DNA from: Escherichia phage ST0
Length of the DNA: 64,000 bases
Strand: one strand, 5' to 3'
Sequence record: MF044457
The notes beneath the pieces were generated by a model. That model saw nothing but the letters and a program-made list of their open reading frames with translations. It ran no database searches and had not been told where the DNA came from. Position 1 is the first letter of the stretch. Every line of letters starts with the position of its first letter. This document shows, piece by piece, positions 9,782 through 63,797 of the stretch. The position numbers were made by a program, and so were the translations under genes.

Positions 9782-9847
9782 TTTCGGGGTTTACATCTTC
9801 CTCTAGGCATGATATGATGTACTTACACAAACCAAGAGGAAAACACT

Positions 9848-10222
9848 ATGAATATGTCTCAAGCAATTTTTACTGCAATCACCGAAAACACAACTGTTGA
9901 AGTAGTTTCTCCGCCGGCAACCTACGTTATTCTTGCTCCTAAAACTATTGTATCTCGTATGGAAAACATGGGCAAACGTATCGTACAAATTGTTGGAGCC
10001 GGAAATCAAAAACTTGATTATCTGCGAACCATCAAAGCTTATGAACATTTCCAACTCGAAAAAGGTTCTCCTATCCAGGTAGAACTCGTAAATGGTGATA
10101 TCGTTCGAGCAATGTTCCATCATTTCTATGCATTGAATGACCCATCTAAAGCGGTTCGTTTAATTGCATATGACGCAAACCAAAACGAAATCAACGCAGA
10201 TATATCTAAATTACATTTTTAA
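9848..10222 (+). CDS. hypothetical early protein
   Basis: ORF track 124 aa; RBS AGAGGA upstream. Confidence 0.5.
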   Translation: MNMSQAIFTAITENTTVEVVSPPATYVILAPKTIVSRMENMGKRIVQIVGAGNQKLDYLRTIKAYEHFQLEKGSPIQVELVNGDIVRAMFHHFYALNDPSKAVRLIAYDANQNEINADISKLHF

Positions 10223-10223
10223 G

Positions 10224-10252
10224 TTTACTTCTCCAGTAGTTGTGTTATTATA
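10224..10252 (+). promoter_or_regulatory. early promoter (GTTTAC -35, TATTAT -10)
   Basis: GTTTAC, 17 bp spacer, TATTAT, then AGACCTATCA extension. Confidence 0.55.
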
Positions 10253-10277
10253 GACCTATCAACTACCGGAGAACAAA

Positions 10278-10595
10278 ATGAAAACCATCGATTGTAAAGC
10301 AGAATTTAAGATTTTTTATCACGGTTCAAGTAGTTCAGCTAACATCGAAAACATGCTTTGTCCTCCTGAGGAAACAGGAGTTCTGTCTGAAACTGGACGT
10401 AAGAAAAACTTGGATCGTGTATTCTTTACTGAAGATATCGGTTTAGCAAAGATTTATGCAGGACGAGCAGCACGCTCTTATGGAGGTGAACCACGTCTCT
10501 ATCGAGTAATTTCTCCGGTAGACGTAGTTCAAATGAATAATACTAAAGGTGCTACAGTTTATCACGCTGAATGGGCATTTTGCGAGGAAATATGA
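10278..10595 (+). CDS. hypothetical early protein
   Basis: ORF track 105 aa; RBS GGAGAA. Confidence 0.5.
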   Translation: MKTIDCKAEFKIFYHGSSSSANIENMLCPPEETGVLSETGRKKNLDRVFFTEDIGLAKIYAGRAARSYGGEPRLYRVISPVDVVQMNNTKGATVYHAEWAFCEEI

Positions 10596-17105: not shown

Positions 17106-17134
17106 GTTTACATTCCCTCCTCTCGTGTTATGAT
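17106..17134 (+). promoter_or_regulatory. early promoter
   Basis: GTTTAC, 17 bp, TATGAT. Confidence 0.5.
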
Positions 17135-17161
17135 AGGCTTATCTTTAAATGGAGGTCTATC

Positions 17162-17743
17162 ATGACATGTCAATCTGAACTTCAAGAACGCGAATACCTA
17201 ACAAATCTGATTGATAGCAAATTCACCAACCAAGAACAAAACATTCTCTGGGCTTGCACCGATTCTAAGGAAGACCCGGATTTCCACTATGAATTAGACC
17301 ATCTTGTTCGTAAGCATATGACTTCTACAGTACCAGTAGAACTCTACCGTGGTGTAACTCCAGAAGAAGTAGAACGTCTTTCCCTTCTTTCTGTTGGATG
17401 TCATTGGTCTCCTGGACGAGTAACATCGTTCACAACTGATTTCAGTACAGCTCGTCAATTCTCCGGGAGCTGGGAATATCAGACGTACACTATTCTTAGT
17501 CTCAGGAATGCTCCATTCATTTTTGATTACTACCAAAACATGGTTAACATTGTACTTGCCGGAAAGAATCCTAAGCATGTTATGGAAGAAACTCGTATCG
17601 ATGTCCTAGATATGATTGAATCTGAACAAGAGTATATGGTCTCAGGTATCTCTAGATTTGAGATTGTGGAAATTGAAGACTTAGAATATGACCCTTTATC
17701 TCGGTTATACAAAATCATTCATTTGAAAATGTTGAATTTTTAG
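17162..17743 (+). CDS. ADP-ribosyltransferase, ModA/ModB family (R-S-E type)
   Basis: 193 aa; ELYRGV (Arg), VTSFTTDFSTARQF (S-x-S/T region), ESEQEYMVSG (catalytic E-x-E-like). Confidence 0.75.
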   Translation: MTCQSELQEREYLTNLIDSKFTNQEQNILWACTDSKEDPDFHYELDHLVRKHMTSTVPVELYRGVTPEEVERLSLLSVGCHWSPGRVTSFTTDFSTARQFSGSWEYQTYTILSLRNAPFIFDYYQNMVNIVLAGKNPKHVMEETRIDVLDMIESEQEYMVSGISRFEIVEIEDLEYDPLSRLYKIIHLKMLNF

Positions 17744-21626: not shown

Positions 21627-21656
21627 GTTTACAACCAAGGACGGTTGGAGTATAAT
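21627..21656 (+). promoter_or_regulatory. early promoter
   Basis: GTTTAC, about 18 bp, TATAAT. Confidence 0.55.
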
Positions 21657-23207: not shown

Positions 23208-23236
23208 GTTTACTTCTCCTCCGGTTTTGATATTAT
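23208..23236 (+). promoter_or_regulatory. early promoter
   Basis: GTTTAC, 17 bp, TATTAT. Confidence 0.55.
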
Positions 23237-23262
23237 AACCATATCAACCAGAGGAGAATAAT

Positions 23263-23787
23263 ATGTTAGTTTACCGCGTAGAACGTAGTTTTTGTACTCA
23301 ACGTGAATCATTACCAGGAATTGCTATCAAAGACGGTAAAGCCGTCAGAATTTGGGAAACCTCTTGGAATAAAGAACCTCGTTCGCCATACGGTTGGTCG
23401 GGCACCGACAACTCTGAAGAAACATGGGAGTTCCTTGATAAACATGGAATAATCTCAGGTAACTTCTACCATCACGGCGACAACTACAATGTCCCTAATC
23501 GTCCTACAGTAAATGAAGACAAACTCCTTGAACAAAATATCTTAAGATACTATAGAATTGAGCACACATTTGAATTGAGTGAAGATTGGGCTCAAGGGTT
23601 CTATTTTGGATTTGAAAGTGTTGACGCGGTTTATGCATGGTTTGATGACCAGGTGGATGTTGAACTCTTGAAAGCTAAAGGATACTACATCGCGGTCTAT
23701 GAAGCACCTGATTTCATCCTCGGAAGTTGTCAATTAATGTTTAGACGTTCATTGGCAGAACAAGTTGATTTTATTTTGCTAAAATGA
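23263..23787 (+). CDS. hypothetical protein
   Basis: ORF track 174 aa; RBS AGAGGAGAA. Confidence 0.5.
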   Translation: MLVYRVERSFCTQRESLPGIAIKDGKAVRIWETSWNKEPRSPYGWSGTDNSEETWEFLDKHGIISGNFYHHGDNYNVPNRPTVNEDKLLEQNILRYYRIEHTFELSEDWAQGFYFGFESVDAVYAWFDDQVDVELLKAKGYYIAVYEAPDFILGSCQLMFRRSLAEQVDFILLK

Positions 23788-32427: not shown

Positions 32428-32457
32428 GTTTACAACTAAGTAGGACTATGATATAGT
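32428..32457 (+). promoter_or_regulatory. early promoter with inverted repeat around the -10
   Basis: GTTTAC, about 18 bp, TATAGT; TAGGACTA and TAGTCCTA flank the -10. Confidence 0.55.
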
Positions 32458-32483
32458 AGTCCTATCTAAAAGAGGATAACATC

Positions 32484-32939: not shown

Positions 32940-32969
32940 GTTTACAACAAGGTAGGATTATGGTATAGT
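32940..32969 (+). promoter_or_regulatory. early promoter
   Basis: GTTTAC, about 18 bp, TATAGT, then TAGTCCTAC. Confidence 0.55.
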
Positions 32970-32997
32970 AGTCCTACTGAAACATGAGGAACACAAA

Positions 32998-33198
32998 ATG
33001 GCTAAGCTTTTTAAAGATGTTGAAATTGGTGAAAAATTTGTTCTGAATAATGGTCAGCAGCTTATTCGTGTAGCTTCTATCGCCGGACAAACTCATAACT
33101 GTATCGCCCCAACGTGTTGGACTCGATTCTTTATTGAAGATGACACTGAATGTTTAACTGTTGAAGAGCTTTTTGAACGTTCTGATATAGCCGAATAA
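32998..33198 (+). CDS. hypothetical small protein
   Basis: ORF track 66 aa; RBS GAGGAA. Confidence 0.45.
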   Translation: MAKLFKDVEIGEKFVLNNGQQLIRVASIAGQTHNCIAPTCWTRFFIEDDTECLTVEELFERSDIAE

Positions 33199-33200
33199 AA

Positions 33201-33230
33201 TTGTACAAACTCTTGAGAGCAGAGTATAAT
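33201..33230 (+). promoter_or_regulatory. early promoter with -10 inside a GAGAGC/GCTCTC inverted repeat
   Basis: TTGTAC, about 18 bp, TATAAT. Confidence 0.55.
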
Positions 33231-33274
33231 GCTCTCATGGATTACAAAAACATTAATCAATTGAGGAAATTAGC

Positions 33275-33721
33275 ATGTCCAAATATTTAACTCGTAAAGA
33301 CCTTCTGGCAGTTGGCGGTGAAGTTGTTGCAGTAGTTCGTAATGGCGAATACGGTTCTGAAGTTTCTAAAGAGTTTCGTTCTCGTGAAGGTTTTTACTTC
33401 TTTGTTAAAGGTTCATCTGACTGGCGTCAAGTTGCAGCACGATTCTTTGTAGGACGTCAACGTTCTAAACAAGGGTTGGATGCAATTCTTTCTCACATTC
33501 GTCAAGGCCGTTCGCAACTAGCCCGTACTATGGGCACTAACAATATTGAATATGATGTAATCTTTGTTGCAGCTAAGAACATGAAACCCCTGACTACTGG
33601 TTATGGTAAAGGACAATTGGCTCTGGCATTCACTCGCAATCATACATCAGAATATCAAACACTCACTGAAATGAACCGTCTTCTGGCAGATAATTTCAAA
33701 TTCGTTCTGCAGAGTTACTAA
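33275..33721 (+). CDS. ndd: Ndd nucleoid disruption protein
   Basis: 148 aa; QRSKQG...[34 protein letters not shown] and C-terminal ADNFKFVLQ match remembered T4 Ndd. Confidence 0.8.
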
Positions 33722-35486: not shown

Positions 35487-35507
35487 GTGCATTTTTCTCG
35501 CAAAACA

Positions 35508-35536
35508 GTTTACATGTGCTTCAAACATGATATTAT
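35508..35536 (+). promoter_or_regulatory. early promoter
   Basis: GTTTAC, 17 bp, TATTAT, then AGACCTATCAAAACAAA. Confidence 0.55.
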
Positions 35537-35575
35537 AGACCTATCAAAACAAAACAACCAAATTGGAGAAATAAA

Positions 35576-35791
35576 ATGTCTAAAATGAAATTAACCCAAA
35601 ACACAACTACTCGTTTTGGTAAAGTTAAACCTGGTATGAATGCTCCCCGTAAAGCACTTGTTGAAGAATTAAATTTCTTAGAAGTTGAAATCAATTCTTT
35701 AGTGGTTCGCGGTTCAAATGGTCATCATTTAGAAAAGCTTCGTTCTAAAAAGGCAAAACTTATTGGCCTTATTAAAGAAATGAGTTTGTAA
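35576..35791 (+). CDS. hypothetical small basic protein
   Basis: ORF track 71 aa; leader and first codons near-identical to those of motA. Confidence 0.45.
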   Translation: MSKMKLTQNTTTRFGKVKPGMNAPRKALVEELNFLEVEINSLVVRGSNGHHLEKLRSKKAKLIGLIKEMSL

Positions 35792-35827
35792 ATTTTACCA
35801 GGGCTTTTGAAAAAGAGCCCAAAATAA

Positions 35828-35856
35828 AGTTTACTTTTGCTTCAAACATGATATTA
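35828..35856 (+). promoter_or_regulatory. early promoter of motA
   Basis: GTTTAC, 17 bp, TATTAT. Confidence 0.55.
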
Positions 35857-35894
35857 TAGACCTATCAAAACAAATACTAATTTGGAGAAATAAA

Positions 35895-36527
35895 ATGTCT
35901 AAAGTTACTTACATCATCAAAGCTTCTGAAAACGCTCTGAATGAAAAAACTGCTGCAATAATGGTTTATATCATTAAGAACAACTTCACCACTGCTGCCA
36001 ATGTCCGTGAAGCTCTGGAAGCGGAATACAATGCATCGGTTGTTAACTCTAACATTGGTGTATTGATTAAGAAAGGTTTAGTCGAAAAATCTGGTGATGG
36101 ACTTATAGCAACAGGCGAAGCAATGGATATTATCCAAAAAGCTGCAGACCTCTTTGCCCAAGAAAATGCTCCAGAACTTCTTCAGAAACGTAACACTAGA
36201 AAAGCACGTGGAGTTACTCCTGAAATGCATGAATTAGCAAACTTTGTTTTTGAAAATATTAAAGATAAAGTTGAAGTTAAAGAAATTGGTGAAAACCGTA
36301 GTAACTTGGAAGTTCGATTTGCAAAACGAGTTCTAGGTATTCGTCAGATCGAAATTCGTCGAAATGGTTCTCTTAGAATCTTTGCATACAACATGTCAGA
36401 AACCGAATCAAAGCTGTTTACTTCTCTTGAAAATGATGTTAAGATTAAGATCGGTGGTAAATATACTTACATTGACTTCCCTAATGTGTCCAAAGAAATC
36501 ATTACCCTTGTAACTAACGTACTGTGA
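35895..36527 (+). CDS. motA: MotA middle-transcription activator
   Basis: 210 aa; MSKVTYIIKAS...NSNIGVLIKKGLVEKSGDGLI...QENAPELL matches remembered T4 MotA. Confidence 0.9.
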   Translation: MSKVTYIIKASENALNEKTAAIMVYIIKNNFTTAANVREALEAEYNASVVNSNIGVLIKKGLVEKSGDGLIATGEAMDIIQKAADLFAQENAPELLQKRNTRKARGVTPEMHELANFVFENIKDKVEVKEIGENRSNLEVRFAKRVLGIRQIEIRRNGSLRIFAYNMSETESKLFTSLENDVKIKIGGKYTYIDFPNVSKEIITLVTNVL

Positions 36528-45071: not shown

Positions 45072-48000
45072 TTATTCAATCCACTCAAATTTAACAGTTT
45101 TATTCACAGGGTCTGGAATAATGCGAACATTACCAATCCTTAAGAAATCCCTTATTGTCAAGTTTCCGATTGTTGCATTATCAGAAGGTAAAGCGCCAAT
45201 ATCAGAAGGTTGAGGAGGGTTTCCGCCATCAAATACCTGAACAAAACTCGACCAAGAATTTTTAGTTTTCTGCCATGTACGTGTCCAACGGGTTGTACGT
45301 GCTTCTGGAGTTGTTGGATAAGTAATCCAATCTTGGTAAAGTGAATCAAGTGTATTACCAAACTGAGTCAATGTACCAGGAGATTTAACTTCTTCGCCAC
45401 GTTCTAAGTATGGAAGCCCAGTCACTTCATTAGTTTTTTCAACCATTTTAAAATAACCCGGGAATTGGTTATAAGTAGCTGAATCATTAATGTCAATTGA
45501 CCAGAATCCTACAGTATCAGATGTCGGTGCACGGGTGTATAAATCAGCGGTTTTAGTGCCCTGAGAACGAATTCTCGAGTTAACAGTTAAACCACCTGAA
45601 TTTATAGTAGCACCTTTGGCAATGATTAAGCTTTCACCAACCGTTACTTGGCCGGATGCATTATTAATAGCTAAAGGACGTAATCCATTAAATCCGCCAG
45701 TCTGATCACCTGATGCAGTAAGCATAAAATAGGTATTAGCAGCATCATTACGAATAAAGAATCCGTAATTACCACTAATTGCTCTGAATGCGTTTGCACT
45801 ATAGGTTATAAATTCACCCTGTGCTGTCACCGAACGTCCAAATGTTGCCGCACCATTAGCATTCAATGTTCCGGATGCATTAACATTAATCGGCCGAACT
45901 GTACCGTTGATGCTGAAAGTAATATTACCAAGGTTATCCCGTTGTGAATAAAAGTGGTTAGATGTTTCATCACCAACTTCAAATATCGTAGCACGAGATG
46001 TATCAGAACCGCCGGCGAATTGGTTACCCCATACACGGATATTCATCGCCTGAGCAGGGTTGTTTCCAGTTTGTGGACCTTTTTCAAATATTAAGCGAGT
46101 TGAAGCACCTGTATTAGAAATAGTTAATGTACTATTAGCAGATACCGAACCACCAAACGTAGCCGTACTAGATGATACAAGAGGGGCACTCAGATTCGTT
46201 TGTTGGGTTAAGGTTAGTGAACCATTAACCGTCTGTGCAATGTCCCTACGAATGAACTGAGATGAATCTAGGCCATCTAATAAATTTGCGTCAGCAGCTT
46301 TTGCTTTTAATGGCAAGTAATTTGCCAATACACGGTTTAATTCATACGGTGATACTGCATAGCTATTTTTCTCGTATAGCTCTAAGTTTTGTGTAGAACC
46401 GACTGTATCATTACCAACGAATGTAATAGAACCGGATGAAGTTTTAACGAATCCGCGAATTGCTGTAGTAGCAGCCCATGTTGGTTCGTTCTGGACAATC
46501 CATTTTAAATTCTTAGGAGATACAGCAGTGTTCGCTGACGTTCCAGTCACAGTTTCAGCCTGAGTAGCAACCTTGATTACACCTTCAGACGTTTCAGTGG
46601 ACTTAGTCCCTAAAAGCTTTTTAGGAGTAATAAGAACATCATCTAAAGTTCCTGCATTAGATTCTGCCTGGGTCGCTACGCGAAGTGTACCACGTTGTGT
46701 TTCATTTGCTTTAGAAATATCAAGAGTATAATGGTTCCACAAGGTTCCTTCTTCAATAAGTCCGGAATCAGAATTAACACTGGTACGGTCAGAAGAATCA
46801 AAATGAGTTTTAATTTTCAGTGGAGTCGAGATACGAGTATCATCAGTTCCAGTATCAAATTCAACTTGCGTAGCAATTTCGGCTATGCCGGATAATCCTT
46901 CCGTCGCTCTCCTATCATTTAACGTCTTAGGCGTTACTGCACGTGTATAATCAGTCCCAGCATTAGTTTCTGCTTGCGTAGCAATTTCAATTAAACCAAT
47001 ACGTCCATCAGTAGAAGTTTTCTTATGTAGTGTTTCAGGAGTTACTACAGCATGAGAGTATCCAGACTGAGATTGTCCAGCAATTACTTCACTATCAATA
47101 GCTAAAATTACTGCACCTTGTTGGGCGTAAGTTGCTTTATATTGGTCAAGGGCTTTAGGAGAAATAGTTAAATTATTTACGGTTTTATTATAAACGTTAG
47201 TGCCTGCGGCCCCACGAGTTTCAGCAGGAGTAGCAGAAGTAGTTGATACATATTTAACTATACCCGATAGTGTTTCGGAACCCTGACGTGCCTGTAATTT
47301 CTTAGGTGTAATAATCGTTGTGTCATCAAGACCAGCATCGGTTTCAGTCTGAGTAGCAATTTCAGCAAGACCGCGACGAGTTTCAGTTGCTGTACGCTCA
47401 TTTAGTTTTTTAGGCGTAACAATAGTATCGTCCACAAATGATGCTGTGGAATTCTGGTTAACTTGTGCTGTTGTAGCAATTTTAGCGATACCACGTCGAG
47501 CTTCAGTTGCTGTACGATTTGCCAATGTTTCCGGAGTAATAGCAACTTCTTTAGCCGGAGTATTCTCTAAATCAACATTTGCTTGCGCTTGAGTAGCAAG
47601 AGCAATAACACCTAAACGAGCTCGTGTAGCATCAGTTCCAGCATCAACACGTTCTACAGTTGGGACGTTTTGTTGAACAACCCAATAACGTGTACCAGCA
47701 ACGGTGTCTTCGATATACGATAATTCTAATACAGGAACATATGAAGTAGTGCCATTGAATTCTAGTTCAGTAACAGAGACCCATTGAGCATCAGGTGGAT
47801 ATTCAGAACGTTTAGGGAACTGAAGCAACGCAACAGAAGAAGCAATTGTATCACCTTCGGCAGCTTTAATTTTTACGGTTTGGCCTTTACGCATGTAGTT
47901 CATTGAAATTTTAACAGTGTCACCACTCAAAATTCCAGTAGGCAGCGTAAGATTAATAGTTCCGGTTGTAGCGTTATTTGTGCCAAAAATAAGAACTTCT

Positions 48001-52291: not shown

Positions 52292-52320
52292 GTTTACTTC
52301 TTCCCTAGATGTGATATTAT
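52292..52320 (+). promoter_or_regulatory. early promoter
   Basis: GTTTAC, 17 bp, TATTAT, then AGTCCTATCA. Confidence 0.55.
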
Positions 52321-52349
52321 AGTCCTATCAACAACATGAGGAAATCAAA

Positions 52350-52754
52350 ATGGAAATCGGAAAATCTTATATCATTAACCCTTTGTTTAAAGACGACTTT
52401 GTTCAAGAAGCACCACACAATAACGCTAAGATGTTAAAATTGATTGAACTCCACGGGCCTAGTTTTGTTGTAAACGGAATGGAACCTGATTATGACGGCG
52501 ATACGCCAAACGTAGTAAGTGTAACTATGGAAGATGGTACTGTATGTTCTGCCGGTGGTGAAATTGAAACTTATTTTGAGATTTATCCTGACGAGTTCAA
52601 ATACTTTATTGAGTACTTTACTGAGGTAACTTTAGAAAAGCCTCAACCTACTAACGAAGGTATAACTTTAGGTGTAACAAAAATCCATTGTATCGTAGAT
52701 GAAACCAACGTCGACGAAATCATCAAACTTTTGCAAAAAACTTTTAAAAAGTAG
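52350..52754 (+). CDS. hypothetical protein
   Basis: ORF track 134 aa; RBS GAGGAAA. Confidence 0.45.
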   Translation: MEIGKSYIINPLFKDDFVQEAPHNNAKMLKLIELHGPSFVVNGMEPDYDGDTPNVVSVTMEDGTVCSAGGEIETYFEIYPDEFKYFIEYFTEVTLEKPQPTNEGITLGVTKIHCIVDETNVDEIIKLLQKTFKK

Positions 52755-52783
52755 TGTACAATCAGATAGGGTTATGTTATAGT
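52755..52783 (+). promoter_or_regulatory. early promoter with GATAGGG/CCCTATC inverted repeat around the -10
   Basis: GTGTAC, 17 bp, TATAGT. Confidence 0.5.
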
Positions 52784-52818
52784 AGCCCTATCAAATCAAA
52801 AGTGAAGCGGAGAATAAA

Positions 52819-61398: not shown

Positions 61399-61613
61399 CT
61401 AAAGAACAGCATGAATACATTAAAGGGCTTATCTATGAATCTGAAATGGCGGCCATGATTTACGGGCGACAGATTCAACGATTAGAATCTTTGCCTCCGA
61501 CTAATGACCGCTTGTTAGTTCAGTCTCGTGCTAATCTGAAAAATGAATATCAGAATAAGTGGGCGGTAGCGACTAAAGCTCTTCATGAGTATATTGAATC
61601 TTTAGTAAAATAG
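61389..61613 (+). CDS. hypothetical small protein
   Basis: ORF track 74 aa. Confidence 0.4.
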   Translation: MPMTKEQHEYIKGLIYESEMAAMIYGRQIQRLESLPPTNDRLLVQSRANLKNEYQNKWAVATKALHEYIESLVK

Positions 61614-61642
61614 TTTACAAACTCTCGGGAGCAGAGTATAAT
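61613..61642 (+). promoter_or_regulatory. early promoter, near-duplicate of the one at 33201
   Basis: GTTTAC, about 18 bp, TATAAT inside a GGAGC/GCTCC inverted repeat. Confidence 0.55.
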
Positions 61643-61670
61643 GCTCCTATGGATAATTGAGGAAATCTAA

Positions 61671-61969
61671 ATGAAAACAATACTAGAGAATTACGTCAAA
61701 CGGTCTGATGAGTATATTGATATCTGCCGTGGAATGTCACTTGCCAATTATGACAAAGATGCAGCAAAGGCACTAGATGAAGCAGGTAAAGCTCTTCGTA
61801 AAGCTGCTAAAGAAAAAGGGTTGGATTTGCAACAACTCAAAAGTCATATGATTAAATTTATTTCTTCAAACGTTAGAAGTAAGTCAATTAATAAAAACGT
61901 TGCTGAAATTAATAAAGACCGGCGCGAGCATAACATTCGTATTCTTGAAACTTTCTTAGGAATAAAATA

Positions 61970-63739: not shown

Positions 63740-63770
63740 GTTTACAACATGGTGGAGTTGTGATACTATA
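63740..63770 (+). promoter_or_regulatory. early promoter
   Basis: GTTTAC, 17-19 bp, GATACT/TACTAT. Confidence 0.45.
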
Positions 63771-63797
63771 ACTCTACCAACAAATGAGGAAATAGAA

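Follow-up and report, generated by a model that had tools for sequence, protein, structure and literature searches.

Two early promoter cassettes in an RB69-like phage

The window, the whole 64,000-nt stretch of DNA analyzed here, belongs to an RB69-like T-even phage (Mosigvirus) and is 100% identical with Escherichia phage 348Ecol098PP over the 2 kb tested. Two of its gene boundaries carry the same kind of cassette: copy A lies between a 66-aa ORF and ndd, and copy B between the pseT.1 homologue and a 99-aa ORF. Each cassette runs from AT-rich upstream bases through a −35 element (TTTACA or TGTACA), a 17-nt spacer, TATAAT and a short, A/U-rich, unstructured leader to GAGGAAA and ATG, and the distance from GAGGAAA to ATG is 5 nt in both. 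The first-pass annotation had described TATAAT as the loop of a short inverted repeat, and this arrangement is real in both copies: arms of 8 bp in A and 7 bp in B (six Watson–Crick pairs plus one G·U) bracket the −10 element, spacer bases at about −24 to −17 pair with bases at about −7 to +1, and an 8-nt loop holds most of TATAAT. The features of the two loci are as follows.

33196-33198: stop codon TAA of the 66-aa ORF, 5′ of copy A
33197..33274, + strand: copy A cassette, from the AT-rich bases after the 66-aa ORF stop to the base preceding the ndd ATG
33202..33207, + strand: copy A −35 element TGTACA, a variant of the T4-type TTTACA
33214..33237, + strand: copy A hairpin, TGAGAGCA (33214-33221), loop GAGTATAA, TGCTCTCA (33230-33237)
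33225..33230, + strand: copy A −10 element TATAAT, after a 17-nt spacer
33263..33277, + strand: copy A Shine-Dalgarno GAGGAAA (33263-33269) and ndd start codon
33275-33277: ndd start codon, 3′ of copy A
61609..61670, + strand: copy B cassette, between pseT.1-homologue stop and 99-aa ORF ATG
61611-61613: stop codon TAG of the pseT.1 homologue (74-aa ORF), 5′ of copy B
61614..61619, + strand: copy B −35 element TTTACA (with the G before it, GTTTAC)
61627..61648, + strand: copy B hairpin, GGGAGCA (61627-61633), loop GAGTATAA, TGCTCCT (61642-61648)
61637..61642, + strand: copy B −10 element TATAAT, after a 17-nt spacer
61659..61673, + strand: copy B Shine-Dalgarno GAGGAAA and start codon of the 99-aa ORF
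61671: ATG of the 99-aa ORF (RB69ORF231c homologue), 3′ of copy B

Copies A and B are predicted T4-type sigma-70 early promoters with a leader and a ribosome-binding site. Both have T4-type −35 and −10 hexamers (TGTACA-17-TATAAT in A, TTTACA-17-TATAAT in B) at a spacing within 16–18 nt, and A+T makes up 70% (A) and 80% (B) of the 20 nt upstream, which end in AATAAAAT and GTAAAATAG, respectively. T4 early promoters (GTTTAC, about 17 nt, TATAAT, A-rich UP element) share these hexamers, this spacing and the upstream A-tract. Early promoters of RB69 were predicted in 2006 with an early-promoter HMM (Nolan et al., PMC1524935), and BLAST coordinates together with the RB69 sequence identify the orthologues of A and B on that list as Pe:165022 (score 18.2) and Pe:136687 (score 26.9), respectively (Nolan 2006, Additional file 3). 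The distances to neighboring predicted promoters (261 and 512 nt; 1406, 2590, and 2127 nt) are identical in RB69 and the window, the sequence of copy B is identical in RB69, and the RB69 order around it is pseT.1, copy B, RB69ORF231c, RB69ORF230c, pseT. The usual 7-nt distance puts the putative transcription starts at the A at 33237 in copy A and the A at 61649 in copy B. Passages of PMC1524935 and of a 2010 review of T4 prereplicative transcription retrieved by term search do not refer to hairpins or inverted repeats in connection with early promoters.

The near-identity of the two promoters over about 40 nt, claimed in the first-pass annotation, holds, and the sequences quoted there lie where it placed them. 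Positions 33197-33242 and 61609-61654 align without gaps at 39/46 bases (85%), and within them 33204-33242 and 61616-61654, likewise ungapped, agree at 35/39. Beyond a 16-nt indel, ATTGAGGAAAT precedes the ATG in both copies; this block represents a generic ribosome-binding motif of T-even phages, for which the window has 7 near-matches where 3.1 are expected. As a comparison set we used 26 + strand sites with a T4-type −35, a 16–18-nt spacer and a TAnnnT −10, followed by a ribosome site and ATG. Among their 325 pairs A/B ranks second, with a promoter-segment identity of 0.84 (median 0.58, 99th percentile 0.80) and an identity of 0.85 in the nonconsensus part, that is, the spacer plus 10 nt downstream (median 0.52). 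The only higher-scoring pair is the tandem 35509/35830, which is 93% identical. The likeness of A and B is not unique in the window, but it exceeds that of typical early promoter pairs, and the original observation therefore stands.

Chance, or convergence of two strong promoters on one consensus, is an exceedingly improbable source of this likeness. Such a reading can point to −35, −10 and A-rich upstream bases common to all T4-type early promoters and to a generic ribosome-site block, yet the rank and the high identity of A/B persist in the nonconsensus part. A 34-nt pattern allowing up to 3 mismatches matches the window only at A and B where shuffles predict 0 matches, and a 26-nt core is repeated at orthologous and paralogous loci of many genomes. 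Chance and convergence are already effectively refuted.

More broadly, the approximately 26 early promoters of the 64-kb window sort into several subfamilies of 50-nt similarity, as alike internally as the A/B one; copy A precedes ndd and copy B precedes ORFans. In the tandem mentioned above, the near-identical promoter, leader and start regions at 35502-35590 and 35823-35910 are 321 nt apart (promoter 93%) and the ORFs begin MSKI... and MSKV..., which looks like a recent promoter-plus-small-ORF duplication.

Covariation in the −10-bracketing stem

Copies A and B are members of a larger family. The first-pass annotation had presented a cassette duplicated at two loci; both copies are real, but a two-copy duplication does not describe them, as at least four copies of the A/B subfamily occur in OR062947.1, the closest reference genome. 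Two further copies there carry the 34-mer of copy A, one after frd.3 and one before the gp55.2 homologue, and the 34-mer is identical in three Mosigvirus copies. T4 has one family member, upstream of motB, at a site annotated in other Tequatrovirus records as a predicted early promoter. We scanned IMG/VR with the pattern ACAAACTCT-N7-AGAGTATAAT, in which the 5′ arm (7 Ns) and the 3′ arm beyond its first base are free and only the A–T closing pair of the stem is fixed. T-even contigs yielded 18 distinct family variants before at least nine different genes, and the same scan also picked up, at six loci, four unrelated sequence variants that lack arms. A separate, mis-spaced IMG/VR pattern (13 Ns where 12 were required) gave chance matches only, with stems of at most 4, and serves as an informal negative control. 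An Rfam scan of the whole window returned no family match.

Variation in the arms is compensated. Across the 18 variants, 98.6% of cells in the 8-bp stem are paired, compared with 35–55% when the 3′ partner is slid, and 4/8 stem pairs show two-sided change (for example, G-C/C-G/U-A at one position and G-C/A-U at others). The observed covariation was reached by 0/500 shuffles. These results indicate that selection maintains the inverted repeat around TATAAT. In VR7/VR26-like phages, too, the orthologous ndd cassette has different, compensated arms; set against the identical arms of the Mosigvirus copies, this suggests homogenization or recent spread, and the likeness of A and B would come from common descent with occasional homogenization.

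The same arms bear on whether the dyad could be an operator at which a dimeric phage protein shuts off early promoters. Its symmetry centers on the −10 element, and the mechanism of T4 early promoter shut-off is incompletely understood (PMC3014915), which counts for such a role. However, recognition of half-sites predicts conservation rather than compensatory change, and the arms vary between copies of one genome yet stay complementary: VR26-like contigs show GGGGTC/GACCCC, GGGAGC/GTTCCC, and GGGGCC/GGTCCC, and other subfamilies have unrelated arms. We regard an operator as very unlikely.

Stems also occur at other early promoters. Of the 26 window promoters, 9 have a stem worth at least 7 pairs that joins the spacer to the 30 nt downstream, vs. 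7.4% of controls in which the 5′ and 3′ parts of different promoters were cross-paired; in T4, stems of at least 8 pairs are found in 13/33 candidate promoters, vs. 4.2% in controls. Two geometries recur, one in which the arms bracket the −10 element, as in A and B, and one in which the spacer pairs with the gene's own Shine-Dalgarno sequence. A second subfamily (TAGGACTAT ... GTAGTCCTA), gathered with free arms and with a downstream ribosome site as the sole filter, shows two-sided changes at 6/11 pairs. Window promoters with stems around the −10 element include the following.

32429..32465, + strand: second-subfamily early promoter with a −10-bracketing hairpin, GTAGGACTAT with GTAGTCCTAT
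32941..32978, + strand: second-subfamily early promoter 261 nt upstream of copy A, GGTAGGATTAT with GTAGTCCTACT
52755..52792, + strand: second-subfamily early promoter with compensated arms, GATAGGGTTAT with GTAGCCCTATC
63741..63779, + strand: early promoter with a 13-bp −10-bracketing hairpin, TGGTGGAGTTGTG with TATAACTCTACCA

Templated correction of quasi-palindromes, a strand-switch form of mutation, is classically known from T4 rII, and by this route paired changes would arise without selection. The stems could then have no function, being palindromes kept up by mutation, and the likeness of A and B would reflect descent of a neutral spacer. We consider this unlikely: the arms are position-specific (9/26 promoters in the window and 13–16/33 in T4, vs. 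4–11% in controls), the G·T excess described below is strand-specific, and between genera no stretch is better conserved than the cassette, whose flanking genes differ.

Two separate observations concern other promoters. In the T4 record NC_000866, positions 133300-133313, inside Pe133295, carry a note that these 14 nt are the "inverted complement of previously reported sequence"; they lie within the −10-bracketing hairpin of Pe133295 (GGTAGAGTTGTG with TATAGCTCTACC). In the window, promoters with −35 positions 21628, 22185, 59024, and 60208 form a subfamily with a CCAAGGAYGG-type spacer and a small hairpin wholly inside it (for example, CCACAAGGATTGTGG and ACACCAAGGATGGTGT).

Folding strand and the proposed read-through RNA

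A transition in a stem leaves either G·T or A·C depending on the strand considered, so mismatches report which strand folds. The non-Watson–Crick cells of the 18 variants comprise 14 G·T and 2 A·C, the latter confined to the terminal pair; like the cells of the covariation counts, these are phylogenetically nonindependent, and by eye they represent at least eight separate G·T events. The 14:2 bias therefore points to folding of the + (sense) strand. That strand most likely folds as read-through RNA, and the tolerance of G·T is also compatible with a hairpin in the non-template DNA strand.

The first-pass annotation had proposed that the hairpin modulates promoter opening. At the DNA level, a cruciform or a non-template hairpin would expose TATAAT as single strand and tune open-complex formation. 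Consistent with this, two unrelated subfamilies have their −10 in the loop, sigma reads the non-template strand, which here is the sense strand, and DNA hairpins also tolerate G·T. Several features speak against it. Each G·T on the sense strand is an A·C on the opposite strand, which would therefore fold poorly, and the 14:2 bias thus counts against a cruciform formed by both strands. The bubble spans −11 to +2 and does not reach the 5′ arm at −24 to −17. Arms of 7–8 bp around an 8-nt loop extrude poorly as cruciforms. The T4 equivalent at ndd has a weak 5-bp hairpin and no promoter, and the class of promoters in which the spacer pairs with the ribosome site makes sense only in RNA. With stem mismatches that are G·T and almost never A·C and with an arm outside the bubble, we do not favor the proposal and judge a DNA-level role of the repeat improbable.

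Folding predictions distinguish the two kinds of transcript. The RNA fold is −14.6 kcal/mol for copy A (z −3.8) and −12.2 kcal/mol for copy B, and the predicted read-through fold is dominated by the hairpin. The leaders of the promoters' own transcripts are predicted to lack structure (−3.3 and −0.9 kcal/mol, z above 0). Host sigma-70 RNA polymerase would start about 7 nt past TATAAT, on the final base of the 3′ arm; because of this position, the promoter's own transcript would lack the hairpin and its ribosome site would be open. RNA arriving from the upstream gene, by comparison, would carry the entire hairpin directly after that gene's stop codon. For copy A, the promoter at 32941..32978 is a likely source of such RNA. 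In read-through RNA the stem could form the boundary of the upstream unit, as an attenuator, a pause site or a 3′-end protector, and the evidence that selection on the sense strand has kept the stem agrees with an RNA structure by which the end of that unit is marked or insulated.

We considered more specific roles for the stem. Neither the A nor the B stem is followed by a T-run, and a terminator scan calls neither hairpin; it does call their neighbors, and the nearby intrinsic terminators differ in having UUCG loops and T-runs. We therefore consider classical intrinsic termination unlikely and reject it as the literal mechanism. An RNase E site directly after the hairpin was also rejected, since a match to RNase E consensus motifs, GGAUU, is present in copy A but in neither copy B nor T4 motB. 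Folding of read-through RNA of A or B gave no convincing masking of the ribosome site.

Gating of translation by a promoter placed inside a hairpin is known for T4 e, soc, 49, and I-TevI (PMC3014915). As in A and B, the promoter there lies in the 5′ part of an RNA structure, its own transcript lacks the 5′ arm, and read-through RNA folds. These are late promoters, however, and their 3′ arm masks the ribosome site, whereas in A and B the ribosome site lies outside the stem. Pairing between spacer and ribosome site does occur in a sister class of early promoters, in the window as well as in T4.

In that class, the spacer is complementary to the gene's own Shine-Dalgarno sequence, in the window at 9790-9860, 10224-10290, 17107-17170, 23209-23275, and 52293-52355 (for example, TCTCCAGTAGTTG with CAACTACCGGAGA and TTCTCCTC with GAGGAGAA). 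Similar pairing occurs in T4 upstream of regB (15 bp), ipII, ndd.4, and others. The ribosome site of these genes could be masked only in RNA coming from upstream. One tentative possibility, which we consider rather doubtful, is that −10-bracketing hairpins and this sister class together act as a selected regulatory layer that is general to T-even early genes. If so, the phage would treat promoter-started and read-through RNA differently, by insulation, by gated translation or by strictly immediate-early expression, and the hairpins would be more than recombination linkers or simple terminators.

Promoter-early stem-loops and proposed module exchange

Promoter-early stem-loops (PeSLs) have been proposed as recombination linkers in T4-like phages (Arbiol 2010, PMC2839356; Comeau 2014, PMC4122927). 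Their stem-loops commonly overlap the −10 box, G-T pairs were noted in them, and mini-circles were detected; one RB49 stem-loop proved to have terminator activity, and boundary roles such as attenuation were proposed (PMC2839356). The concept was later extended to T4/PST and KVP40/nt-1 (PMC4122927). Copies A and B resemble PeSLs in their AT-rich upstream bases, sigma-70-type early promoter, −10-overlapping stem-loop with G-T pairs, and 3′ Shine-Dalgarno and ATG, and the family, like PeSLs, has many copies per genome. PeSLs sit where close relatives differ by insertions, deletions or replacements; some family members other than A and B do so too, but within Mosigvirus this is not seen at A or B.

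There are also differences. PeSLs were described in RB49/phi1, T4/PST, and KVP40/nt-1, whereas A and B come from an RB69-like phage. RB49 stems are poly-G/poly-C, unlike those of A and B. The T4/PST stem-loops were placed just upstream of the promoter, while the stems of A and B and those in the present T4 scan bracket the −10 element or pair with the ribosome site. The gene after copy A, ndd, has a known function and is not an ORFan. On balance A and B are a well-supported, largely ordinary example of the published PeSL class and not a new kind of element.

Breakpoints at family cassettes are seen among relatives. In one Mosigvirus-like contig (L030), the frd.3-side copy is preceded by an extra promoter and an 86-aa ORF, and the junction falls in the −35/ACAAAC bases that are shared. 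Another contig (L008) has a different N-terminal half in the downstream ORF, the replacement beginning at the ribosome site of the cassette. A third case (L034 vs. L006) lacks the downstream ORF exactly from ATG to ATG; a second cassette behind this indel was not found, and an ATG-to-ATG deletion needs none. Copy B and two ORFs sit between pseT.1 and pseT, which in T4 abut directly with no gap and without this two-ORF module. Between genera, homology at the ndd locus begins at the first base of the cassette.

The first-pass annotation had suggested that such repeats can drive recombination and module shuffling, and proposed that downstream gene content be compared in related phages. The published PeSL concept supports the general idea, and the breakpoints at family cassettes in relatives are in line with it. 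Both A and B are intact in about 150 Mosigvirus records, and no shuffling was seen at either in these genomes. A crossover between A and B would delete or duplicate about 28 kb, including gene 52, motA, and many other genes. The cassettes could serve as short conserved linkers through which promoter-plus-ORF modules are gained, lost and swapped between related phages.

We favor, as reasonably probable, the reading in which A and B belong to one PeSL-type subfamily whose stem acts in read-through RNA and whose members, alike by shared descent, are linkers for module exchange. The result places RB69-like phages in the published PeSL picture and adds to that picture an explicit subfamily that includes T4 motB, the covariation and strand-bias evidence for a stem around the −10, and a link to the sister class with pairing between spacer and ribosome site. 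It also bears on the gain and loss of small early genes in T-even genomes. The cassettes are relevant to phage engineering and annotation because, at 60–80 nt, they would be portable "promoter plus insulator plus ribosome site" units.

Three further observations concern neighboring or related regions. No promoter was found in the T4 ndd upstream region; there, at T4 166041-166100 (minus strand), a GGCCG/CGGCC hairpin is followed by a leader like that of copy A (TTGGAGTAGAAAATAA...GAGGAAATTAATATG), which may be a decayed cassette with its stem retained. Window positions 32500-59080 are not colinear with OR062947.1, which has 2321 extra bases there; an intron-associated endonuclease inserted in nrdB may account for part of them. 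Finally, 46833-47669 holds two imperfect direct-repeat families of 48 and 67 nt (60–81% identity, spacings of 108–375 nt), probably internally repetitive coding sequence.
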